DNA from: Candidatus Nomurabacteria bacterium
Lineage (GTDB): Bacteria; Patescibacteriota; Minisyncoccia; Phycocordibacterales; UBA9973
Assembly: GCA_016699085.1 (NCBI GenBank)
Contig: CP064958.1
Span: forward strand, 271,630-335,629
Direction: 5' to 3'
Length of the DNA: 64,000 nucleotides
A program made the translations under genes and the position numbers. The number at the start of each line of letters is the position of its first letter. Positions within the stretch are counted from its first letter, which is position 1. Below are positions 3,255-63,613 of this stretch, in pieces. The notes under the pieces are model-generated. The model was given only the letters and a program-made list of their open reading frames with translations, ran no database searches and had not been told where the DNA came from.

Positions 3255-3327
3255 TGCGCCCGGTAGGAATCGAACCTACGACCATCTCCTTAAAAGGGAG
3301 CTGCTCTACCGACTGAGCTACGGGCGC
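3255..3327 (-). tRNA. tRNA-Lys (anticodon UUU)
   Basis: The minus-strand sequence GCGCCCGTAGCTCAGTCGGTAGAGCAGCTCCCTTTTAAGGAGATGGTCGTAGGTTCGATTCCTACCGGGCGCA folds as a cloverleaf. The anticodon loop is CUUUUAA with UUU at positions 34-36, the T-loop is GGTTCGATTCC, and the acceptor stem is 7 bp. CCA is not encoded. Confidence 0.85.
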
Positions 3328-9503: not shown

Positions 9504-9580
9504 AATCAAATATTTTGAGCCGAACATTGTTTGAGCCCCGCTCATGCGGGGCGAGTTTGAGAGGCAAAAAATATTTGATT
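9504..9580. repeat. IR-flanked GC-core hairpin element (divergent member of the intergenic element family)
   Basis: The flanks aatcaaatatttt / aaaaaatatttgatt are inverted repeats. The core is GAACATTGTTTGA-GCCCCGCTCATGCGGGGC-GAGTTTGAG. It shares the TGTTTGA-[hairpin]-GAGTT arms with copies at 15152, 45308, 52433 and 63187. Confidence 0.55.
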
Positions 9581-9605
9581 ATGAAGTGTTTGGAAATATA
9601 ACAGC

Positions 9606-9635
9606 AAAAAATCACCCCGTGTGGGGTGATTTTTT
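9606..9635. terminator. Bidirectional intrinsic terminator
   Basis: AAAAAATCACCCCGTGTGGGGTGATTTTTT: a perfect 8-bp GC-rich stem flanked by an A-tract and a T-tract, immediately 3' of the 9649..11826 gene. Confidence 0.75.
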
Positions 9636-9648
9636 GTGTTGTGTTCTC

Positions 9649-15006: not shown

Positions 15007-15113
15007 TTGCTTTGATTATATATTTAAAGAGTACGAATATTTTTGTACTCAAAAATTCCTCGAGTTCACGCCGCCGCACTCGCTAGCCTCTTGAAATATA
15101 TAATCAAAGCAAA
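15007..15113. repeat. IR-flanked element (divergent family member), in tandem with copy 15131..15224
   Basis: Flanks ttgctttgattatatattt / aaatatataatcaaagcaa form a 19-bp perfect IR. The core contains a GAGTAC-N10-GTACTC hairpin followed by CGAGTTCACGCCGCC (compare GAGTTCCGC in the main family). Confidence 0.5.
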
Positions 15114-15130
15114 AAGGGATGGTTTGGGGA

Positions 15131-15224
15131 AAAATAAAACACAATTATTTTTGCAGCGAGGACTGTTTGAATCCAATTGTAATTGGATGAGTTCCGCAAC
15201 AAGAAAATAATTGTGTTTTATTTT
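15131..15224. repeat. Intergenic element family copy A: 21-bp perfect AT-rich IR flanks around a conserved 52-nt core
   Basis: Flanks aaaataaaacacaattatttt / aaaataattgtgttttatttt. Core TGCAGCGAGGACTGTTTGA-ATCCAATTGTAATTGGAT-GAGTTCCGCAACAAG. The core is near-identical (reverse complement) to 45308..45359 and 52433..52484. Confidence 0.85.
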
Positions 15225-15254
15225 TTACTTACATTAATATACAAAAGAAAAAAC

Positions 15255-28152: not shown

Positions 28153-28235
28153 ATAATTGCGAATTTACAACTACAAATTACGAATGCATACTGTATTTCA
28201 ATTCGTCATTCGTAATTTTTAATTACAACTAAAAT

Positions 28236-28290
28236 AAGACGATTATTTTCTTCTTGTGGGGCGTAGGTCCTCATCGAGAATAATCGTTTT
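28236..28290. repeat. Small IR-flanked GC-core element (family relative) between convergent genes
   Basis: Flanks aagacgattatt / aataatcgtttt. Core CTTCTTGTGGGGCGTAGGTCCTCATCGAG shares the GTCCTCA and CTTGT(T)G motifs with the main family. Confidence 0.45.
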
Positions 28291-28296
28291 TTTATT

Positions 28297-43325: not shown

Positions 43326-45236
43326 TTATTCAAAGTATAGTATTTTTTCACTGCGTCCTCTAGATTGGTAGAGTTCTTGTTCGACGAGCAAAGGCGGAAT
43401 ATCATAAATAAATTCCGAAGGTATATTGATTTGGCGCATACCAAATATAGTTCTCGTTTCTGCGTATGATAGATAGAGAAATTCCTTAGCGCGAGTGACA
43501 GCGACATAAAACAACCTGCGTTCCTCTTCGGCATCTTCGATTGTCTTACTATCGAGTCTGGCATGTGGGAAAAGATCTTGTTCAAGGCCAACAATAAAGA
43601 CAACTTTAAATTCCAAACCCTTCGCGGCATGGACGGTCATGAGCCTAACCCCACCTCTGTCTTCTTCTAGATTATCTTGATCGCTTGCGAGTGCTGCGTC
43701 AGTTAAAAGCTTATCCATGCCTTCATCAATCCCCCATGCGTCATACTTGGTCGCAAGTGTTACGAGTTCTTCTAAGTTCATGAGTCGATCTTCATCATCT
43801 ACGCCTCCAGCTCGTAATGTCTCGTCAATTTTTGCTTCATGAAGAATATACTTAAATACTTCTGATGGAAGCATGGTTTTTTTACATTCGTTGATACGAT
43901 CGAGTAGTTCATAGAAAGCATTGATTTTTACTTGCATTGGTCTTGGTAATGATTCAAGTTCTCCGGCAAATAGTTTTACCAATGTCACTTTACCAATGCC
44001 TCGTGTTGGGAAATTGATGATGCGTTTGATGTCAGATAGTGAATTGCGATTGTGCGCTGCCCGAACATAGGCAAGCATGTCTTTGATCTCTTTACGCTCA
44101 AAGAATTTTGTACCAACAACTTGGTATGGAATATTGGAACCTAGCATGGCTTCCTCGAGTACGCGTGATTGGAAGTTGGCTCGATATAAAACGGCAATAT
44201 CCTTTGGAGCTGTTCCCTCTCGAATGAAGTTGTCTGCTGTGTCAGCGACAAATTGCGCTTCATCATTCTCACCAAAGGCAGTATAGAGCTTGATACTATC
44301 ACCGTCTTTACCGGTATGCAGAAGAAGTTTCGGTATCCGAACAGTATTTTTTTTAATGATAGCGTTTGCCGCATCCAGGATTACTTTTGTCGATCGGTAA
44401 TTATGCTCAAGAAAAACAATCTTGGCTTCTGGATAGTCCTTCTCAAACCGAAGCATATTTTTCATGTTGGCACCCCGCCAGCTATAAATGTTTTGGTCCA
44501 TATCTCCCACGACGCAGATATGATGGTCATTGCCGACCAATAGCTTGGCAAGTTCATATTGCACTGTATTGGTGTCTTGGTATTCGTCAATGTGGACGTA
44601 GCGCCAGCGCGACTGATATTCATCACGTATGGTTTGGTTACGAAGTGCGATAAGTGCATAGAGCAAGAGATCGTCGAAATCAACCGAACCTTCTTTCTTT
44701 TTCTTCTCTTCATATTTCTGCCAAACACTATTGATAAGTTCTTCACTATAGTTTGAAGCTTTGGCTGCAAATTGTTCTTGGGTCTCACCTTCACCTTTGG
44801 CCTTAGATATGACGTATCGGAATTTGCGTGGCTCTTGGGCTTTGGGATCAAGGCCGAGCTCTTTGATGGATTCTTTGATAAGCGATATCGTATCTCCGTC
44901 ATCTAAAATAGTAAAATATCTTGTTAAATTAAAAAGTCTTGCGTGTTCACGCAGGATAGTCGCTGCCAACGCATGAAATGTTGCGACAAATGGCACTTCG
45001 GTTATACCTTTTGGTAACACGTTTACCACACGCTCACGCATTTCTTTAGCAGCTTTGTTGGTAAAGGTGATAGCTAGAATATGTGATGGCAACACGCCTT
45101 CTTTGATGAGGTGCACAATCCGATGAGTAATGGTTTTTGTCTTGCCAGCGCCAGCGCCGGCCACGATTAATAGTGGTCCATGTATAGAAAGTGCGGCCTC
45201 TTTTTGCTTTTCATTGAGTCCATCGAGATATTCCAT
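43326..45236 (-). CDS. pcrA: ATP-dependent DNA helicase, UvrD/PcrA/Rep family
   Basis: Walker A GAGAGKTKTITHRIVHLI, VHIDEYQDTN, and the helicase motifs of SF1A. Confidence 0.9.
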   Translation of the reverse strand: MEYLDGLNEKQKEAALSIHGPLLIVAGAGAGKTKTITHRIVHLIKEGVLPSHILAITFTNKAAKEMRERVVNVLPKGITEVPFVATFHALAATILREHARLFNLTRYFTILDDGDTISLIKESIKELGLDPKAQEPRKFRYVISKAKGEGETQEQFAAKASNYSEELINSVWQKYEEKKKKEGSVDFDDLLLYALIALRNQTIRDEYQSRWRYVHIDEYQDTNTVQYELAKLLVGNDHHICVVGDMDQNIYSWRGANMKNMLRFEKDYPEAKIVFLEHNYRSTKVILDAANAIIKKNTVRIPKLLLHTGKDGDSIKLYTAFGENDEAQFVADTADNFIREGTAPKDIAVLYRANFQSRVLEEAMLGSNIPYQVVGTKFFERKEIKDMLAYVRAAHNRNSLSDIKRIINFPTRGIGKVTLVKLFAGELESLPRPMQVKINAFYELLDRINECKKTMLPSEVFKYILHEAKIDETLRAGGVDDEDRLMNLEELVTLATKYDAWGIDEGMDKLLTDAALASDQDNLEEDRGGVRLMTVHAAKGLEFKVVFIVGLEQDLFPHARLDSKTIEDAEEERRLFYVAVTRAKEFLYLSYAETRTIFGMRQINIPSEFIYDIPPLLVEQELYQSRGRSEKILYFE

Positions 45237-45284: not shown

Positions 45285-45383
45285 AAGAAAGTTTGGATAA
45301 ATTTTTTCTTGTTGCGGAACTCATCCAATTAAAATTGGATTCAAACAGTCCTCACGGCAAAAAATATTTTTCCAAACTTTCTT
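45285..45383. repeat. Intergenic element family copy B
   Basis: Flanks aagaaagtttggataaatttttt / aaaaatatttttccaaactttctt. Core CTTGTTGCGGAACTCATCCAATTAAAATTGGATTCAAACAGTCCTCACGGCA. Confidence 0.85.
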
Positions 45384-45445
45384 TTGGTTTGTTCATAAAC
45401 AACAAAAGTGCCATGGTATACCATGGCACTTTTGTTGTTTATTTA

Positions 45446-51305: not shown

Positions 51306-52403
51306 ATGATAAAACCCTTATTTTACAAGCGCGGAGCATCCGGGGTTGTTTTTGTGTTGCTGGCTATTGGTTTACTACTCTACCCACTCGAGTCATATGC
51401 CAATTTTTTCTCAACCGCTCTATTTCAAAAGCCCGAAAAAGCTTATGCCCAAAACGTGCCAATAGCTAAAAATTCACAAACATTGCCAATTTTGAGGGCA
51501 GAAAATACGACAGTGGCCATGAAAAGTAGCGAAATTGCTGACATTATTATCTCAGATGATACTGCCTTGGTACCACAAGCTGGACCTTCGGGAACTGTCG
51601 CTGATATGTCAGAAGATATAACGAGTGGTCAGATTAGCACCTATGTTGTTAGATCAGGTGATTCGCTGTCGGTCATAGCTGACATGTTTAATGTCTCTAT
51701 TAATACGATTCTTTGGGCAAATGATTTAAAGAAAGGTCAAGCACTCCAAACGGGTGATACGCTCATTATTTTACCAGTAACAGGACTTAAATATACAGTC
51801 AAAAAGGGTGATACAGTTAGTTCAATTGCTAAAAAGTTTAGTCTTAGTTCATCAGAAGAAATTATTTCATACAATAATTTAGAGACAGTCACAGTTGCTG
51901 TTGGTGATGTACTCATTATTCCTGGTGCAGAATTGCCTGCTGAAGTTCCAGTGACACCAAAGAAAACCCCTGTCAAACAAGGGGGTAGTAGTAGTGTATT
52001 CGTTAAGAATCAATCTGCAGGAAGCAAAATTGCAGGTTACTTTATAAAGCCAATACCGTGTGGCCTTACCCAAAACAAGCATGATAAGTATGCGATCGAT
52101 ATGAGTTGCGGTGGTTCTGGTATGCCAGTCAAAGCTGCTGCAAGTGGTACTGTCAAATTTGCTAAAACTGGTTGGAACGGTGCTTTTGGTAACCTCGTCG
52201 TTATTGCTCATGCTAACGGCACGCAGACTTTCTATGCTCATCTTTCCAAGATAAGTGTTTCAATTGGTCAGGAAGTGAATCAAGGTAGTATTATCGGCAA
52301 TGTCGGTTCTACAGGACGCTCAACTGGTCCACACCTTCACTTCGAAGTTCGAGGTGCGTATAATCCTGGCTTTGACACTTCAGGACAGCTTTGGAAGAAG
52401 TAA
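51306..52403 (+). CDS. LysM-domain M23 family metallopeptidase
   Basis: Two LysM repeats (YVVRSGDSLSVIADMF..., YTVKKGDTVSSIAKKF...) and a C-terminal M23 domain with HLHFEVR. Confidence 0.85.
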   Translation: MIKPLFYKRGASGVVFVLLAIGLLLYPLESYANFFSTALFQKPEKAYAQNVPIAKNSQTLPILRAENTTVAMKSSEIADIIISDDTALVPQAGPSGTVADMSEDITSGQISTYVVRSGDSLSVIADMFNVSINTILWANDLKKGQALQTGDTLIILPVTGLKYTVKKGDTVSSIAKKFSLSSSEEIISYNNLETVTVAVGDVLIIPGAELPAEVPVTPKKTPVKQGGSSSVFVKNQSAGSKIAGYFIKPIPCGLTQNKHDKYAIDMSCGGSGMPVKAAASGTVKFAKTGWNGAFGNLVVIAHANGTQTFYAHLSKISVSIGQEVNQGSIIGNVGSTGRSTGPHLHFEVRGAYNPGFDTSGQLWKK

Positions 52404-52411
52404 AATAGATT

Positions 52412-52505
52412 AAAAAGAGCGAAAAGATTTTTCTTGTTGAGGAACTCATCCAATTAAAATTGGATTCAAACAGTCCTCATTGCAAAAAATCTTTTCGCTC
52501 TTTTT
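52412..52505. repeat. Intergenic element family copy C (between convergent M23 and comM genes)
   Basis: Flanks aaaaagagcgaaaagattttt / aaaaatcttttcgctcttttt form a perfect 21-bp IR. Core CTTGTTGAGGAACTCATCCAATTAAAATTGGATTCAAACAGTCCTCATTGCA. Confidence 0.85.
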
Positions 52506-52522
52506 ATGTGACTGTACATTTC

Positions 52523-54058
52523 TCACAGCGCCTTCGGCCGATACTGTAGTGCTTCTAATATATGTGGAGTACCCACGGTTTCATCTCCGTTAACATCAGC
52601 GATTGTTCTTGCTAGTTTTAACACTCGATGATACGCACGTGGCGAGAGATTAAGCTTGGTTGCACTTTGATTGAAGAATGTCTGTGTTTTTGGATCTAGT
52701 GTAATTAGTGCACTAATATCTTTGGCATTCATATCACTATTGGTAGTGTGTGGGCGATTTGCATTTTCGAAACGTGTGCGTTGTTTGGCTCTGGCTACTT
52801 GAACTCGATCTCGGATGGTTTCTGTTTTTTCGCCAACAGGAGCATCACTGCCTAATTTCTCATAGCCGATCGCGCCGACTTCAACCCAGATATCGACACG
52901 GTCCATGATCGGACCTGAAAGTTTACGATTATATCTCGCTATGTCGCCTGCGGTGCAGGTGCATTCTTTTGCTCGTGTACCGCGATAGCCACAAGGGCAT
53001 GGATTCATAGCAGCAATCAAAATAAAATGTGACGGAAACAATGCAGTGCCTTTGGCCCTGGAAATAGATACGATTTTGTCTTCGAGCGGTTGGCGCAGAG
53101 ATTCGATGACTCGCTTGTCGAATTCTGGAAATTCATCCATAAATAATACTCCGCGATGCGCAAGTGTTATTTCACCAGGCTTCGGTGTGCTACCACCACC
53201 GATGATCGATACATAGGATGACGTATGGTGTGGTGCACGAAATGGTGGCAATGTAATCACATCAGCGTTGAGATTGCCGGCAACAGAATGAATGCTCGTG
53301 ATCTCGAGTGCTTCAGTAAGTGTGAGCGACGGCAAAAGTGTTGCAAATGCTCTCGCGAGCATGGTTTTGCCTGTGCCAGGTGGTCCATACATGGCGATAT
53401 TATGTCCGCCAGCTGCTGCTATCTCAAGCCCACGTTTAGCACCTTCTTGTCCACGGATATCTGAGAAATCAATATCACTGACATGCCTAGAAACATCAAT
53501 TGGTGTTTTTTCTTTTGGTTGTATTTTAGCAGTTTCTTCTGTTGCAGTAAGGTGAGTAATCAATTCACTAAGCGTATGTACACCAAATACTTTGATACCA
53601 TCAACCAGTGCTGCTTCACGTGCATTCGCTTCTGGTACATAGAGTTCTTCAAATCCATCACGCTTGGCTTTCTCCGCAAGCGGTAGCGTGCCTTTGATAG
53701 GTAACACTTCCCCATTGAGTGCGAGTTCTCCTAGGAATAACTTTTTTTGAATTTCAAATGTAATTTCTTCTGAGGCCAATAAATAACCGAGTGCAATGCC
53801 AATATCAAATGTTGAGCCTTCTTTTTTTGTTTCTGCTGGCGAGAGCGAGACGATGATTTTCTCGTTTTTGCTTTTTGGGGACGTGTAGCCTGAATTTTTG
53901 ATTGCTGAGCTTACACGATCGCGCGCTTCCTCGACTGCTTTATCAGGCAACCCAACAATAGAGAATGTGTGGAGTCCTTTTGAAAGATCTACTTCAATAG
54001 TAATAAGTTCTCCGCGAAGGAGTGATGTTTGTGCCGAATATAATCTGGCAAAAGACAT
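52523..54058 (-). CDS. comM: YifB/ComM family Mg-chelatase-like AAA+ ATPase
   Basis: Walker A GPPGTGKTMLARA, N-terminal Lon-like domain, C-terminal Mg chelatase subunit ChlI-like region. Confidence 0.85.
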   Translation of the reverse strand: MSFARLYSAQTSLLRGELITIEVDLSKGLHTFSIVGLPDKAVEEARDRVSSAIKNSGYTSPKSKNEKIIVSLSPAETKKEGSTFDIGIALGYLLASEEITFEIQKKLFLGELALNGEVLPIKGTLPLAEKAKRDGFEELYVPEANAREAALVDGIKVFGVHTLSELITHLTATEETAKIQPKEKTPIDVSRHVSDIDFSDIRGQEGAKRGLEIAAAGGHNIAMYGPPGTGKTMLARAFATLLPSLTLTEALEITSIHSVAGNLNADVITLPPFRAPHHTSSYVSIIGGGSTPKPGEITLAHRGVLFMDEFPEFDKRVIESLRQPLEDKIVSISRAKGTALFPSHFILIAAMNPCPCGYRGTRAKECTCTAGDIARYNRKLSGPIMDRVDIWVEVGAIGYEKLGSDAPVGEKTETIRDRVQVARAKQRTRFENANRPHTTNSDMNAKDISALITLDPKTQTFFNQSATKLNLSPRAYHRVLKLARTIADVNGDETVGTPHILEALQYRPKAL

Positions 54059-56343: not shown

Positions 56344-56492
56344 ATAAAAGTAAACAAAACGCTTACTTTATATATAAAATAAGCTTATTGATAGACATAT
56401 ATCTATATTTATGTCATAATCTGTAAAGATCGGGTTTGATTGGCAAAATGGGGCAATTCTAGAAGCCCCTCTTACTAATTAAATCCAAACAA

Positions 56493-57281
56493 ATGAAAAA
56501 TTCAAAAAAATTACTTATTGTAGCGGGAGCTGCAGGCGAAATCGGAACCGAGTATTGCAAGATGGCCATTGCACACAAAGTTAATTGCATTGGGATTGTT
56601 AGAAATCGAAGAACAGGAATCAAATCACCTTTCTTTACTGAAGTAGTATGTGGCCTCGACAAAGAAGCATCCATACATGAGTCATTTGCAGATGTTGATT
56701 TCAGTGAATATAAAGAAATCATTTATCTGCACACTATTGGCGTAGATAACTTTGATCCCCGTGGTTACCCAAATATAGAGCCCTTAAAAACAATTCCGCT
56801 AGAGATCTATGATTCAAATGTAAATTCATTTAAGTATTTACTTAGGTATTGTGGAATGAAGATCAGTGCGTTAAATGATGGTAGAAGAGACTCTAAGATT
56901 AGCTTGAAAATTGCAATTATTGCAGGAGTTTCAGACAAGTACACTCCCTTTGTAATTGAGCCTTTTTGTGAAGCTAAATTTATCTTGAGACAGTATATTC
57001 AATCATATATACAACTGCATCCGGATTGGATTTCAGGACTCTCGATAAATATTACCTCAACAATTACTGCTTCTGCATTACGAGTACGGCCACATGCAGA
57101 TACCACGTACTGGCTACAGCCATCTGAAGTAGTTCAGAAATCATTTGAAACGCTTATCTCAAACGCCCGTAAGTACAAGGAGATGGATATCATAAAAAAC
57201 TTTCCAGATTTTATTCCTGGATATTATATGTCCAATAAAGATTTGTATGAAAAATGGAGCAGAGAAACAGGTGTTAAGTAA
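56493..57281 (+). CDS. NAD(P)-binding Rossmann-fold protein (SDR/epimerase-like)
   Basis: N-terminal LLIVAGAAGEIGTEY glycine-rich dinucleotide-binding motif. Confidence 0.55.
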   Translation: MKNSKKLLIVAGAAGEIGTEYCKMAIAHKVNCIGIVRNRRTGIKSPFFTEVVCGLDKEASIHESFADVDFSEYKEIIYLHTIGVDNFDPRGYPNIEPLKTIPLEIYDSNVNSFKYLLRYCGMKISALNDGRRDSKISLKIAIIAGVSDKYTPFVIEPFCEAKFILRQYIQSYIQLHPDWISGLSINITSTITASALRVRPHADTTYWLQPSEVVQKSFETLISNARKYKEMDIIKNFPDFIPGYYMSNKDLYEKWSRETGVK

Positions 57282-57393
57282 TAATCTAAGGAATTTCTGT
57301 CGATTAATCTTCAGAAATTCCTTTCATTATTCAGCTCACGATATTTCGTGGGTTGATAGTGAAATTGCCCTTTGTTAACTTAAAAAGTACATT

Positions 57394-58011
57394 ATGAAAA
57401 AGGATGTTTCTGAAATTCTTGCCTTTGTGTTTGCTAAAATTGTAGGTTGTATTTTCTTTGGTTGGCTAACATACCTCGCTGGGATTCTTGTAGTTCTAGC
57501 AGTACTGGATGATAATCAAAACTTGTTTTCAACATTCGGTTATTCCATCTTTTGTTTGGGCTCACTGATCTTTGCCGTATTTTTTCTTGCAATGAGTGAA
57601 GAAGATTTAAGGAAAAAGCGGAAAGATAGGAATACTAACTGGAGAAACTTGGCTCCCAAACTTTGCCGCCAGCGGATCATTATTGAAGCAATCACGGATC
57701 ACTGTGTCACACCAGAAGAGTTCAAAGACTATCTTTTGAAACTCTCTCATGTTGTCGGCATGCGATTACTGGAGCATGGCAAAGATCCTAACCCTTCTGC
57801 CTATGACGCCGAGAATATGGGTTACGGTGGCTGGATTCATTGGGTCACTTCCGGCGCGCATATGTATTCGTATCCTGCCGAGGTCACAGGTGGTGCAGGA
57901 CATTTGCTTAGTGTCGATGCCTATACCTGTAAACCGTTCTCCGTCGAGAAAGCTGTTAAATTCACCCGAGAGTATTTCAAACCGAAAGACATAGTCTGGC
58001 GGGAATTTTAA
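57394..58011 (+). CDS. Membrane-anchored S-adenosylmethionine decarboxylase-like (pyruvoyl AdoMetDC family) protein
   Basis: Two N-terminal TM helices. The C-terminal motifs WVTSGAHMYSYPAE and LSVDAYTCKP resemble the SpeH/SpeD-type ESHIxIHTWPE and DVFTCG motifs. Moderate. Confidence 0.4.
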   Translation: MKKDVSEILAFVFAKIVGCIFFGWLTYLAGILVVLAVLDDNQNLFSTFGYSIFCLGSLIFAVFFLAMSEEDLRKKRKDRNTNWRNLAPKLCRQRIIIEAITDHCVTPEEFKDYLLKLSHVVGMRLLEHGKDPNPSAYDAENMGYGGWIHWVTSGAHMYSYPAEVTGGAGHLLSVDAYTCKPFSVEKAVKFTREYFKPKDIVWREF

Positions 58012-58170
58012 CTCTATCCTAAGTCGTATTTTATGAAAATGAAATACGACTTTTTCTTATAGTCAGTAAACTTAAAGTTTATTAATTTATAATAACAAAC
58101 AATAAATTATATATCTGTCAATATTCCTGCTATGCTTATCACAAAATAAGTTCACTAAAAATCAAACAAG

Positions 58171-58740
58171 ATGAAAGAAAAATATTATGTAATAGCATCC
58201 ACTGCCTTCTTGTTGGTCTTGATTACTGTTTTGGTCTCTTTACCTTCTTGTGGTTTCCATCTGGTGAAATTTGGGTCACAACGCGCTTTCATTATGAAAA
58301 CTGGGAAAATAGTTTCAGTTCGTAGTGTTCCGACAGATAAGGAAATCGGGGATACAATCATTGTGTTCCATACTAGTGACCAATCAGATACAACATATGT
58401 TTGGATAGAAGATGACTTTGCTCCGACACATGAGCAGGAGGGAATAAAAAATCAAAGCGGTGAGTGTAGGTATAGGGCAATAATCGTCTCTCCTGGCACG
58501 AAACAAGTGACCCCAACTAATGCTTTTACTGTTGATACTTATTCGAGCTCGTATAATCCCAATACAAATTCATTCGAAGTTGGATTCGATGTTAAAGAAA
58601 GAAATACAACAGGAAAGGTTCAGGTATTTGTAAAGCAAGGAGAAGATTGCAGAACAACCAACCATAAGATTTTCGACAGTTTATTAGTAGTAACTCAGTA
58701 TGCAGACACCTACAGATTTATTTCATTTAAAGAACGTTAG
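58171..58740 (+). CDS. Secreted/anchored hypothetical protein
   Basis: N-terminal hydrophobic segment VIASTAFLLVLITVLVSL, a beta-rich body, and a terminator hairpin at 58746..58775. Confidence 0.45.
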   Translation: MKEKYYVIASTAFLLVLITVLVSLPSCGFHLVKFGSQRAFIMKTGKIVSVRSVPTDKEIGDTIIVFHTSDQSDTTYVWIEDDFAPTHEQEGIKNQSGECRYRAIIVSPGTKQVTPTNAFTVDTYSSSYNPNTNSFEVGFDVKERNTTGKVQVFVKQGEDCRTTNHKIFDSLLVVTQYADTYRFISFKER

Positions 58741-58745
58741 GGTTC

Positions 58746-58775
58746 CAAAAAACCAGACAGAATGTCTGGTTTTTT
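58746..58775. terminator. Bidirectional intrinsic terminator
   Basis: AAAAAACCAGACA-gaa-TGTCTGGTTTTTT. Confidence 0.75.
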
Positions 58776-59637
58776 ATATTTTGTCCTCCAGATTTTTAGG
58801 AATGACAAAATTTTTCGTAAAGCGTTTTTTGAGTATATGGGCTTTTGATTTGTTGTGATCGACAAGTATCTTGGACTTCCTGTGCTTGGATAATATTGCT
58901 CGTAGTTTCTTGTCAGCTTCTTCGTCATATACTTTTAGCGCTCTAAACAATATGTCGATTTCATTTGCAACTTTCTCATCATAGCGAGTCGTAATGATAT
59001 AGTCTCCCATCACGACAATATTGTCTGTGAGGGGAAAATTGAAACTCTCATCGATTGCAACTTGGACAGTATCGGTCTGATATTTTTTCTTAAAAGAAAT
59101 TGCCATTGGTGTCTGCACACCAAGTGTTGTGAAGAGTTGGTGCCTTTTCTTCTTGATTAAATCAAATAAGTTATTTTCAGCTTCTGGCCTGTCATACATG
59201 AACCACTCATGATGGTTATAGAAAAATATTGGTTCACCTTTTAGTTCTTCGGCCAACAGTAGAAAAAGATGTGCCCAATAAATATCAAGTTCGGTAGTTG
59301 ATGTGAACGTATATGACTGTATGCGTCCTTCTCGTTTGGAAAGCCTCTTAACAATACCGTATGCACTCTCTGCTTGTTCAACAAATTTGGCAATTTTTGC
59401 AATCCAAACAATATTTAACGATACACGCCGTCCATGTTTTATTACCTGTTCTTCTTTAATAAGCTCACGAAGTGCTTTGTAATAAGCTTGTTTCGTTGCG
59501 TCAAATGGTCTTGCAACTAAATCCATTAATTCGAGGCTATCCTTTTCACCAGCAACAAGCTCAAGTACGATTGCGCCTTTCAACCCTATTACGCTTCCCG
59601 GGAAAATATTGTGAGTAAACTTTTTATTTACTATCAT
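58774..59637 (-). CDS. Hypothetical protein, paralog 2 of the ~300-aa family
   Basis: See the paralog 1 alignment blocks. Confidence 0.55.
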   Translation of the reverse strand: MIVNKKFTHNIFPGSVIGLKGAIVLELVAGEKDSLELMDLVARPFDATKQAYYKALRELIKEEQVIKHGRRVSLNIVWIAKIAKFVEQAESAYGIVKRLSKREGRIQSYTFTSTTELDIYWAHLFLLLAEELKGEPIFFYNHHEWFMYDRPEAENNLFDLIKKKRHQLFTTLGVQTPMAISFKKKYQTDTVQVAIDESFNFPLTDNIVVMGDYIITTRYDEKVANEIDILFRALKVYDEEADKKLRAILSKHRKSKILVDHNKSKAHILKKRFTKNFVIPKNLEDKI

Positions 59638-59715
59638 AATATAACTATCGCATTTTTTGAAATGGTGTCAATAGCATTGTATGCTTAGAAAAATTGTTAA
59701 CTTAAATCAAAACCA

Positions 59716-60105
59716 ATGGCACTCTGCGGATTCAACAAGCAAATGATAGATGGCGTCAAGAATTTTTTTGAAGGCGCTGCTGATCAAATCACTATTCGTG
59801 CTCAAGAAGAAAATATGGTTATTCGAGAAGTAATTGAAAATATTGAGCTACCAGAACTTGATTTTATGATTTCTGAACTTTCACGTTCAGGCAAAGATGA
59901 TGTATTCTTGGGTCTTTCCTATCTAGCGAGAGCACAATACAAAGTTGGACTCAAAGGAGTTAAAGAAGGTGGTGATATAAAAATTGTTTGTAATACATTT
60001 GTCGAAAAAGAAATTCCCCGACTTTTGGAACTTGAGGATAAGTATTATAAAGAATTGCGACCAAAATATGGAATGGAAGAAGCAATAAAAAGAATGTTTT
60101 CGTAA
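59716..60105 (+). CDS. Hypothetical protein
   Basis: 129-aa ORF with a plausible RBS-less start, followed by a strong terminator. Confidence 0.45.
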   Translation: MALCGFNKQMIDGVKNFFEGAADQITIRAQEENMVIREVIENIELPELDFMISELSRSGKDDVFLGLSYLARAQYKVGLKGVKEGGDIKIVCNTFVEKEIPRLLELEDKYYKELRPKYGMEEAIKRMFS

Positions 60106-60108
60106 ATT

Positions 60109-60137
60109 CAAAAACCGACTCATCGAGTCGGTTTTTT
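60109..60137. terminator. Bidirectional intrinsic terminator between 59716 gene and pnp
   Basis: AAAAACCGACTC-atcg-AGTCGGTTTTTTT. Confidence 0.8.
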
Positions 60138-60152
60138 TCTTTTCCAAATTTA

Positions 60153-63075: not shown

Positions 63076-63159
63076 GCTTGCAGTATATATTTTTCTCATT
63101 GCGGGGCGCAGTCTGTTAGGTCGCGCTTGTCCTCATTTCGAAAAATATATACTGCAAGC
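63076..63159. repeat. IR-flanked GC-core element (divergent), tandem with copy D
   Basis: Flanks GCTTGCAGTATATATTTTTC / GAAAAATATATACTGCAAGC form a perfect 20-bp IR. Core TCATTGCGGGGCGCAGTCTGTTAGGTCGCGCTTGTCCTCATTTC. Confidence 0.55.
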
Positions 63160-63165
63160 TCGTTG

Positions 63166-63257
63166 CTTGTCTGTAAGAGAATTTTTGTAACGAGGACTGT
63201 TTGAACCTTGTTACCACAAGGTGAGTTCCGCAGTAAAAAAATTTTCTTACAGACAAG
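63166..63257. repeat. Intergenic element family copy D, with a compensatory variant of the internal hairpin
   Basis: Flanks cttgtctgtaagagaattttt / aaaaattttcttacagacaag. Core GTAACGAGGACTGTTTGA-ACCTTGTTACCACAAGGT-GAGTTCCGCAGT. It has the same arms as copies A, B and C, but the hairpin sequence is fully replaced while pairing is preserved. Confidence 0.8.
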
Positions 63258-63316
63258 TAGATTATTCTTCGATTTAGTATAACATCTGCCCGGACGATTG
63301 TTCAGTCGGACGAGGG

Positions 63317-63346
63317 AAAACCGCCCCGCACATGCGGGGCGGTTTT
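63317..63346. terminator. Intrinsic (bidirectional) terminator of rpsO
   Basis: AAAACCGCCCCGC-acat-GCGGGGCGGTTTT, immediately 3' of the rpsO stop. Confidence 0.8.
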
Positions 63347-63352
63347 CAAGCA

Positions 63353-63613
63353 TTACTCTTTGATTTTTTTGAGGGCTTTGGCGTAGCGAGTCTTGTCTTT
63401 CTTCTCGAGATATTTGAGGTGAGTTCGGCGATCAGAAACCATTTTGATAAGTCCACGCCTAGAATGGTTGTCTTTCTTGTGTTTCTTGAGGTGGGTCGCA
63501 AGTTCGCCGATTGAGGCTGAAAGCATGGCAATCTGGACTTCAGGAGAGCCGCTATCTGTAGCATGCGCCTGGTTTTCCTTGATGATTTTCTGTTTTTTCT
63601 TTGTCGTTAACAT
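63353..63613 (-). CDS. rpsO: 30S ribosomal protein S15
   Basis: [51 protein letters not shown] matches the S15 consensus (HKKDHHSRRGLLRMV). Confidence 0.9.

Follow-up and report, generated by a model that had tools for sequence, protein, structure and literature searches.

A dispersed intergenic hairpin with a conserved apex: a candidate minimal form of a structured nucleic-acid family found in several bacterial phyla

Why should intergenic hairpins whose stems share almost no sequence carry a nearly invariant tip? The question is raised by a 64,000-nucleotide stretch of a Candidatus Nomurabacteria genome (the 808-kb contig CP064958.1; the stretch is hereafter called the window), in which a first-pass annotation had described four near-identical cores, each set within an inverted repeat peculiar to its locus. 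These loci and cores were confirmed by sequence, and a covariance-model search added a fifth, divergent copy at 9504-9580. About 25 invariant bases at the tip are common to the five intergenic hairpins of the window. Of the three explanations that had been offered (a bidirectional terminator, an element placed in the centre of palindromes, or a small structured RNA family), the last is the best supported, by occurrence in at least eight phyla, covarying helices (P1 and P3), strand-specific G·U pairs and, in other genomes, a putative triple-helix pseudoknot on the same strand; support for the second is partial, and for the first weak. We hold, with about even confidence, that the element represents a new and widespread structured family acting as a folded single strand, most likely RNA, that its apex docks a conserved partner, and that the window contains minimal, hairpin-only versions.

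The 14-mer GAGGACTGTTTGAA has exactly four matches in the window, at 15158(+), 45340(-), 52465(-) and 63192(+). The looser pattern TGTTTGAR-N8-30-YGAGTT has five, against 0.13 expected, and none of 100 shuffles reached that number; the fifth match lies at 9528-9557(+). A covariance model (R2) scores the four main copies at 52-62 bits (E 1e-15 to 1e-18) and the divergent copy, over 9514-9570(+), at 20.3 bits (E 3e-4). On the sense strand the layout is arm - GC - GAGGACUGUUUGAA - hairpin - UGAGUUCC - GCA(A/G) - arm'; the strand originally written out was the reverse complement of this one, which the evidence below suggests is the one that folds. When folding was compared with shuffles, the four main copies gave z-scores of −5.7 to −8.6. 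Stems are 20-23 bp long in the window, and the family median is about 38 paired positions in the arm. The arms are locus-specific: those of copies 1, 3 and 4 have no second match in the window (the arms of copy 2 lay outside this search), a result on which a role of the arms as guides was set aside, and the only part common to the four arm pairs is an inner A/T run.

What stays invariant in the 160 distinct copies is an internal loop built of two strands, 5'-C GAGGAC UGUYUGAR-[P3]-YGA GUUCC GCA G-3', in which P3 is a hairpin of free sequence. We read the apex as a helix P2 (GGAC/GUUC), a 5-nt bulge (UGUYU), tandem G·A/A·G pairs, an R-Y pair and P3, which together would form a kink-turn-like internal loop. 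Covariation was tested on 115 aligned sequences over P1 (the 5 bp beside the core), P2, and the R-Y position plus P3. Paired cells made up 82.9%, against 69.5% in shuffles, and double-sided changes were found in 225 cells, against 106; neither value was reached in any of 500 shuffles, and a register shift of 1-3 columns lowered pairing to 28-45%. P1 and P3 covary and use all Watson-Crick pair types. P2 holds a fixed G·U and varies in these sequences only where C-G has become U·G. Most copies have G-C (99) or A-U (43) at the R-Y position, and the rest have A·C (10) or G·U (8). P3 ranges from a single base pair with a GAA loop (C-GAA-G) to inserts of more than 70 nt; since it is free in both sequence and length, the constraint sits in the two-strand internal loop. 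The patterns used for collection fixed most core bases, so that the true variability of the family must be larger than that of the sample. In Burkholderiales, for example, the apex keeps just C-UGUYUGAR...YGAGUU, and P2 takes the forms CCGCAG/CUGCGG, CCGCAU/AUGCGG and GGGGG/CCCCC. Two possible resemblances may be mentioned: UGUUUGAR (15164-15171 in the window, with equivalents in all copies) may be like the rrn boxA core of Gram-positive bacteria and actinobacteria, and GAGGA may be Shine-Dalgarno-like.

The family extends far beyond the window. More than 160 distinct copies were found in genomes and metagenomes, distributed over eight or more bacterial phyla. When one genome of each species was scanned for the exact pattern, 34 loci were found, whose carriers within the candidate phyla radiation (CPR) are Saccharibacteria, Falkowbacteria and Gracilibacteria; the others are Gastranaerophilales (Melainabacteria), Chloroflexi, Gamma-, Beta- and Epsilonproteobacteria, Spirochaetes and Leptospirales. 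A Planctomycete match was discarded as probably due to chance, as it lies inside a gene. A slightly degenerate pattern gave at least 120 metagenome loci, and among the metagenome copies listed the GAG...CGA form is commoner than GAA...UGA. Nearly all copies are intergenic, several genomes have many, and a single 12-kb contig carries four. Cultured carriers exist (Variovorax, Ralstonia, Comamonas and HTCC5015). The first-pass annotation had named three outcomes that would speak against such a family: a lack of further copies, cores lying outside palindromic flanks, or a match to a described element. None was observed: additional copies are plentiful, palindromic flanks surround them, and Rfam gives no match (ISfinder was outside the search).

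At the gathering threshold of Rfam 15 the window yields only a tRNA, the gene at 3255-3327(-), and no element was found adjacent to a tRNA. When the locus was searched at E values up to 10, only sub-threshold matches to microRNA hairpins appeared, with no likeness to a ribozyme or riboswitch, and neither 18 related loci nor the full-length units described below gave an Rfam match. Literature searches with core and pseudoknot strings returned only chance primer matches, and keyword searches returned only papers on TIGR-Tas and IS110/Nop5, which describe something different. A motif of about 25 bases that stays identical from CPR to Proteobacteria amid wholly changed surroundings has the level of conservation found in riboswitch and ribozyme cores, yet neither Rfam nor the searchable literature contains this one. 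The apex could be imagined as a new class of self-cleaving ribozyme or aptamer carried within a long stem: strict conservation is limited to two internal loops set between helices of free sequence, its distribution is multi-copy, patchy and multi-phylum, as with other small ribozymes, and it has no protein partner in cis. We regard this as very improbable, given the lack of Rfam likeness even at these permissive E values, the absence of the element from viral contigs, where small ribozymes are common (no match to either pattern in 2.9 million contigs), the lack of the consistent position relative to genes that a riboswitch would need, and stems of a length unusual for either class.

Genes beside the element offer no partner either. 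Clustering of neighbouring proteins at 34 and then at 163 loci revealed no recurrent family, including no transposase or RAYT-like gene. The apparent clusters proved to be ABC-F paralogues or spurious open reading frames running across the element itself, and a "linked gene" in Gastranaerophilales was the housekeeping gene obg. Together with the blank results for Rfam, the literature and the viral contigs, this is consistent with an element of the cell.

Which strand, and in what form, is under selection? In RNAfold predictions, the arms outside the core contain 424 G·U pairs when the sense strand is folded and 294 when the antisense strand is, and the sense fold is the more stable in 126 of 155 instances. 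A second module lies 60-120 nt downstream on the same strand in Proteobacteria, one Chloroflexi, one Spirochaete and some Saccharibacteria copies. Its sequence is GUCGCC - Y1 - GGUUAC-Y2 - GGCGAC - R-GUAACC, with a GC hairpin after it; Y2 forms base pairs with R, a purine tract, and Y1 is the mirror of Y2, hence parallel to R. As low-complexity tracts make a plain comparison non-discriminating, the register was tested by run lengths around the interrupting C/G. Sixteen cases were parallel and none antiparallel, with 4 ties and 3 symmetric cases, over 8 distinct patterns. The parallel register is the pattern that marks a U·A-U / C+·G-C triple helix in the major groove of an H-type pseudoknot. 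A coding explanation of the pyrimidine and purine tracts was rejected: P3 lengths are not divisible by three, and nothing in a coding role would account for the mirror covariation. The pseudoknot is placed downstream of the hairpin in 42 cases and upstream in 7. Full units measure about 270 nt and often form head-to-head pairs 170-300 nt apart across an AT-rich spacer. The copies in the window are hairpin-only and lack the pseudoknot module.

Taken together, the covariation, the strand bias and the linked pseudoknot indicate selection on a folded single strand, and in the simplest reading that strand is most likely RNA. The data show the conservation, the covariation, the strand bias, the register of the triple helix and the polymorphism among strains; that the strand is RNA, that the apex adopts the geometry of a kink-turn and that a partner exists, we infer. 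On this interpretation, the dispersed hairpin would be the minimal form of an uncatalogued structured nucleic-acid family, its apex a docking site for a conserved partner, whether a protein or a cellular machine, and its long, fast-evolving stem a scaffold. In other lineages, the hairpin would serve as the 5' domain of a unit of about 270 nt that ends in the triple-helix pseudoknot and GC hairpin. At the DNA level, the elements would behave as unstable palindromes, with arms that diverge yet stay complementary and cores that flip or drop out to leave a shorter palindrome. If the element is RNA, it would constitute a new orphan class with a conserved partner and a rare triple-helix module.

The five copies of the window differ in context as well as in their arms. 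Copy 1 (15130-15225, +) has perfectly complementary 22-nt arms at 15130-15151 and 15204-15225. Its core with inner junctions, 15150-15206, reads GAGGACUGUUUGAA-[UCCAAUU gu AAUUGGA]-UGAGUUCCGCA; dG is −37.2 and z is −7.4, and R2 gives 60.2 bits (E 2e-17). It follows the region of a pilB-like gene and lies on the same strand as the neighbouring genes. Copy 2 (45285-45383, −; core 45305-45361; 62.5 bits) has 23-nt arms at 45285-45307 and 45361-45383 that are 91% complementary, and lies between a palindromic terminator (45395-45442) and the start of a uvrD-like gene at 45236. Copy 3 (52411-52506, −; core 52430-52486) has perfect arms of about 23 bp, reads GUUCCUCA where GUUCCGCA otherwise stands, and is the most stable by z-score (dG −42.8, z −8.6; 52.5 bits). 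It fills the spacer between two convergent genes, comM/yifB (52523-54058, −) and an M23 peptidase gene (51306-52403, +). Copy 4 (63166-63257, +; core 63184-63240; 61.3 bits) has arms of about 21 bp, within an inverted repeat of 31 nt and 84% complementarity (63166-63196 / 63227-63257). Its P3 differs from that of copy 1 (UCCAAUU/AAUUGGA) but still pairs (CCUUGU uacc ACAAGG), and it is antisense to both flanking genes, rpsO and NYN, just past an ordinary terminator. The divergent copy 5 (9504-9580, +) has 18-nt arms at 9504-9521 and 9563-9580 around the apex GAACAUUGUUUGAG-[CCCCGC ucau GCGGGG]-CGAGUUUGAG. Compensatory changes keep its pairing, with P2 as GAAC/GUUU and G-C for A-U beside the G·A tandem; it is antisense to both neighbouring genes, adjoins a terminator (9605-9636) and is kept in five strains. 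Overall, two copies are sense to their neighbours, two are antisense and one lies between convergent genes.

The first-pass annotation had placed every copy 3' of a gene and between an A-run and a T-run. The placement holds for part of the set: rpsO is on the minus strand, which makes copy 4 antisense to its neighbours, and the same is true of the copy at 9528. As for the runs, most are parts of the stems, and only copies 1 and 3 end in terminal A/T runs. The related proposal of a specialised bidirectional terminator, or a stabiliser of mRNA 3' ends whose tip would tune the effect through a bound factor, draws on the intergenic location of all copies, on the great stability of the stems, on these terminal A/T runs and on copy 3, which is the sole hairpin between two convergent genes. 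In our view it is improbable. Three of the five copies (2, 4 and that at 9528) lie just past separate canonical GC-rich terminators, between the ordinary terminator of the upstream gene (9605-9636, 45395-45442 and 63316-63347) and the start of the next gene. A terminator scan picks out 9604-9637, 45395-45442, 60110-60136 and further ordinary terminators. It passes over all of the elements, whose AT-rich arms with a 50-nt "loop" do not resemble a GC stem with a short loop and a U-tract. Elsewhere a U-tract is missing from most members, and the proteobacterial hairpin has additional structure downstream. Termination would have no need of a conserved asymmetric core, and the orientation of that core flips between strains, as described next.

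In relatives of the window genome with about 70% ComM protein identity, no copies were found in 67 kb, and the rpsO-NYN spacer is 123-129 nt long, compared with 320 nt in the window. Because these spacers are too diverged for an exact empty-site comparison, we sampled 17 contigs that encode an identical NYN protein (DNA identity 97-98% in rpsO, 93% in NYN). Some of these strains match the window at the rpsO-NYN spacer. Five strains of a second type (L167) carry both spacer elements, copy 4 and a degenerate relative described below, in the same place, with homologous but diverged arms and with both cores inverted relative to the flanking genes. Their copy 4 core keeps the locus-specific P3 (CCUUG..CAAGG, 14/16 identical), and 50 of its 57 positions are identical to those of the window, the invariant strands differing at 1 base. 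By comparison, the arms are only about 60-70% identical between strains and the surrounding spacer is barely alignable. Since the core has changed far less than arms or spacer, it is either under purifying selection in this lineage or homogenised among copies. One near-identical strain (L171) has no canonical core; its arms are joined as an uninterrupted 11-bp palindrome, TCCAUAAGAAA-auuc-UUUCUCAUGGA. Two others (L172, L175) have an unrelated spacer of 178 nt and no element. At copy 2, the orthologue is kept in L003 (89% DNA identity) and L039.

An uninterrupted palindrome at an apparently empty site is what had been anticipated by the proposal of an element in the centre of palindromes. In its strict form, the core of about 57 nt would be a mobile cassette that targets the loops of pre-existing palindromic terminators, as IS1397 targets REP (repetitive extragenic palindromic) loops, and the opposite core orientations of the window and L167 types could reflect two independent insertions into an ancestral palindrome. 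Although L171 does supply the same arms without the core, the window and L167 cores are orthologous by their locus-specific P3, on which ground L171 is most parsimoniously read as a clean loss. AT-rich as they are, the arms have no GC stem of the sort found in the genome's real terminators, perfect palindromes of 20-70 bp are too rare to provide a standing pool of targets, and the signs of mobility looked for (a transposase, target-site duplications, a viral carrier) did not turn up. In other CPR subfamilies, moreover, the arms of paralogues are homologous and carry compensatory pairs (UUGGGA/UCCCAA, UUGAGC/GCUCAA, UUGGCC/GGCCAA), which argues that arms belong to, and travel with, the element and are not pre-existing terminators. 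We find insertion of a bare core very doubtful, and the least probable of the explanations considered. Template switching at short inverted repeats yields both flips and central deletions with no need for a dedicated enzyme, and flips of this origin explain the mixed orientations.

The same strain data bear on the main rival to the reading favoured here, that of a non-autonomous selfish DNA palindrome (resembling REPINs or miniature inverted-repeat transposable elements, MITEs), in which a trans-acting enzyme would recognise the folded core in single-stranded DNA or a cruciform and copy or insert the element; the core would then be conserved as the site that this enzyme recognises, any RNA being incidental. 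We consider this possible, if unlikely. It would account for the 5-8 copies in 64 kb of a genome of about 0.8 Mb against none in 67 kb of the relatives, for degenerate copies, for presence and absence among strains together with the L171 palindrome and the flips of both adjacent cores, for arms that are hypervariable yet complementary, for assemblies that break within the element, and for mixed orientation to genes. It does not sit well with the lack of a transposase, RAYT-like or other gene recurring near 163 loci, with zero copies in the viral contigs, or with the lack of target-site duplications and shared terminal repeats. About 25 bases are identical from CPR to Proteobacteria while P3 has fully diverged, which points to long purifying selection rather than recent transfer. 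The excess of G·U pairs on the sense strand and the fixed-strand link to the triple-helix pseudoknot also weigh against it, and the flips and central deletions are generic to short inverted repeats and require no enzyme. Should the element nevertheless be selfish DNA, it would be a repeat type conserved at its centre instead of its ends, and would imply a structure-specific mobilisation route new to science. Whichever applies, the density in the window extrapolates to something of the order of 1% of a streamlined genome of 0.8 Mb.

Several observations weigh against a family acting as folded RNA and should be set beside the evidence for it. The structural arguments all hold equally for folded single-stranded DNA, in which G·T wobbles, sheared G·A pairs and pyrimidine-motif triplexes can form. 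Core flips between strains of 93-98% identity are awkward for a cis-acting RNA that lacks a promoter of its own, and promoter scans of the window gave no convincing promoter, such scans being uninformative in AT-rich DNA. Orientation to neighbouring genes is mixed across loci (same/same 14, opposite/opposite 8, opposite/same 8). Lineage-specific expansion, decayed copies and presence/absence polymorphism are traits of selfish repeats. The "invariance" of the core is partly by construction, as the collection patterns fixed most of its positions, and the model did find variants (UGUCUGAG, GGAU, and a freely covarying P2 in Burkholderiales). Finally, the bulge is 5 nt long, where standard kink-turns have 3 nt. 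The RNA and selfish-DNA readings are not mutually exclusive; REP elements act at both levels.

We compared the element with known systems and found that it lacks a defining feature of each; it is not a member of any named family. REP, REPIN and BIME (bacterial interspersed mosaic element) sequences are likewise short, intergenic, multi-copy palindromic hairpins that act as DNA and RNA, often occur as inverted pairs and expand within lineages. Their stems, however, are conserved and bear a 5' GTAG-type tetranucleotide for RAYT, and the families are species-specific, whereas here the stems are locus-specific, an asymmetric apex is conserved and the motif crosses phyla. Among the window copies there is no conservation of the stem of the REP/REPIN kind and no GTAG or GTGG tetranucleotide at the arm ends, and no RAYT is found among recurrent neighbours at the 163 loci (the rest of the 0.8-Mb genome lay outside this search). 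MITEs such as Correia/NEMIS, ERIC, RUP and BOX are also small, non-coding, dispersed and intergenic, and can form long hairpins and affect transcripts. Copies of a MITE are alike over their whole length, with conserved terminal inverted repeats, and come with target-site duplications, whereas here each copy has its own arms, only the centre is held in common, and the hairpins are not bordered by direct repeats. IS1397 carries its own transposase and inserts into a repeated palindrome; the 57-nt insert considered above contains no open reading frame, and the arms are not a pre-existing repeat family.

In layout the apex resembles kink-turns (Kt-7, the U4 5' stem-loop, box C/D and C'/D'): a canonical helix that ends in C-G is followed by nucleotides bulged from the 5' strand, by the G·A/A·G tandem and then by a non-canonical helix that continues into a hairpin. 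As in box C/D RNAs, the terminal stem is on the outside and the strand with the bulge is the 5' one. GA is invariant on both strands and the next R-Y pair covaries from A-U to G-C, as expected for the tandem, which may adopt sheared geometry. The element differs in its bulge, UGUYU, which is itself invariant and is 5 nt rather than 3 nt long if C14-G46 closes P2, and in the extra invariant bases (GA ... CGCA) that flank P2. We know of no L7Ae- or Nop-type binder in most of the carrier phyla.

A further comparison is with TIGR-Tas arrays, which occur in CPR and have variable but always palindromic stems around box C/D-like motifs; TIGR units form tandem arrays beside a tas gene encoding a Nop domain and hold two spacers of 8-12 nt between boxes (Faure et al. 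2025, PMC12045711). Both systems place palindromic, sequence-free stems around conserved boxes. The elements described here occur as scattered single units without spacers, P3 being base-paired and 5 to >70 nt long, and no gene is associated with them.

The pseudoknot module is reminiscent of the triple-helix pseudoknots of SAM-II, preQ1-II, telomerase RNA and the ENE, where a pyrimidine loop likewise lies along the stem 2 purine strand in parallel orientation. It has no sequence or Rfam likeness to any of them, and is absent from the window copies. At its most ambitious, the docking interpretation would make the apex the assembly site of a widespread and previously undescribed bacterial ribonucleoprotein with a kink-turn or box C/D-like binder, the variable duplex below the apex being the specificity element of each paralogue. 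We offer this only as a speculative and rather unlikely extension. If true, it would define a new class of guide-like or adaptor RNAs whose full-length forms are stabilised by a 3' triple helix, and the CPR genome of the window would carry dozens of minimal versions.

Three further palindromes in the window may be relatives of the element. One, at 63076-63159(-), has 19-bp arms, lies head-to-head against copy 4 and bears the apex GAGGAC-AA-[GCGCG..CGCGC]-CCCGCAAUGAG. The bulge and the G·A part are missing, R2 gives a non-significant 8.7 bits, and the resemblance was recognised by eye; in L167-type strains it is flipped, like copy 4. Another, at 28233-28293(-), has 18-nt arms of 83% complementarity around GAUGAGGAC-CUACG-CCCCACAAGAA and looks like a core with a deleted centre, a by-eye likeness that goes undetected by the model. 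The third, an inverted repeat beside copy 1 (15007-15112; 25 bp, 96% complementary, 56-nt loop), may be a rearranged relative, again judged by eye: its loop contains CGAGGAAUUUUUGAG on the minus strand, matching the 5' core strand at 12 of 15 positions, and GAGUUCAC on the plus strand. GC skew reveals no replication switch within the window.

Full units in other genomes were found in unannotated regions of three Burkholderiales: Variovorax paradoxus VAI-C, chromid CP063167 at about 174.0-174.2 kb (L164, 1380-1570), Ralstonia solanacearum, megaplasmid CP060702 at about 75.5-75.8 kb (L185, 330-520) and Comamonas odontotermitis NZ_CP083452 (L186, 330-540). Just upstream of the Variovorax unit, at 1260-1350, are three tandem REP-like units (CCGAGCGNAGCGAAGGCCCGUUGGGUA). 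In gamma proteobacterium HTCC5015 (L013, 1900-2850), 2-3 full units stand in tandem, with direct repeats of 155-194 nt spaced 373-477 nt apart. Proteobacterial rods also contain the sequence GAGNNNCGCAG three times: a second internal loop has it on each strand, and the core has it in its 3' strand. A Sphingobium plasmid (AP027342; L165, 1440-1540) carries an unrelated palindromic repeat (GUUCGGGCUGAGCUUGUCGAAGCCC ... GGGCUUCGACAAGCUCAGGGCGAACGG) that matches the flank of a metagenome unit and represents a REP-like family in its own right, belonging to Alpha- and Betaproteobacteria.

The palindromes also have practical consequences, in that they break short-read assemblies and cause spurious gene calls. 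Four short-read contigs of the window species (L040-L043) end 73 nt past comM, inside copy 3 (near position 52450 of the window), and two (L178, L179) end 33 nt past a 102-aa gene (near 45413), inside the terminator 45395-45442 upstream of copy 2; such palindromes systematically break short-read assemblies. That terminator, which belongs to the 102-aa gene, is a perfect 28-nt palindrome, and its L003 orthologue shows compensatory differences (GCCAUGG/CCAUGGC versus GCUGUAG/CUACGGC). A "gene" of 85 aa is annotated across both hairpins of the rpsO-NYN spacer (63096-63353(-) in the window, 1185-1442 in L039, 1173-1430 in L166 and L169) and is almost certainly an artefact of the palindromes.

Larger differences among the strains were noted in passing. 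Near the elements, one block of the window (56420-60147) is replaced relative to a 98%-identical strain (L039, 4392-7639), and in L167-type loci (2061-2870) a 269-aa gene is inserted between NYN and pnp despite the identical NYN protein. A metagenome-assembled genome 89% identical to that of the window is labelled Saccharibacteria; the NCBI label of the window genome itself is Candidatus Nomurabacteria.

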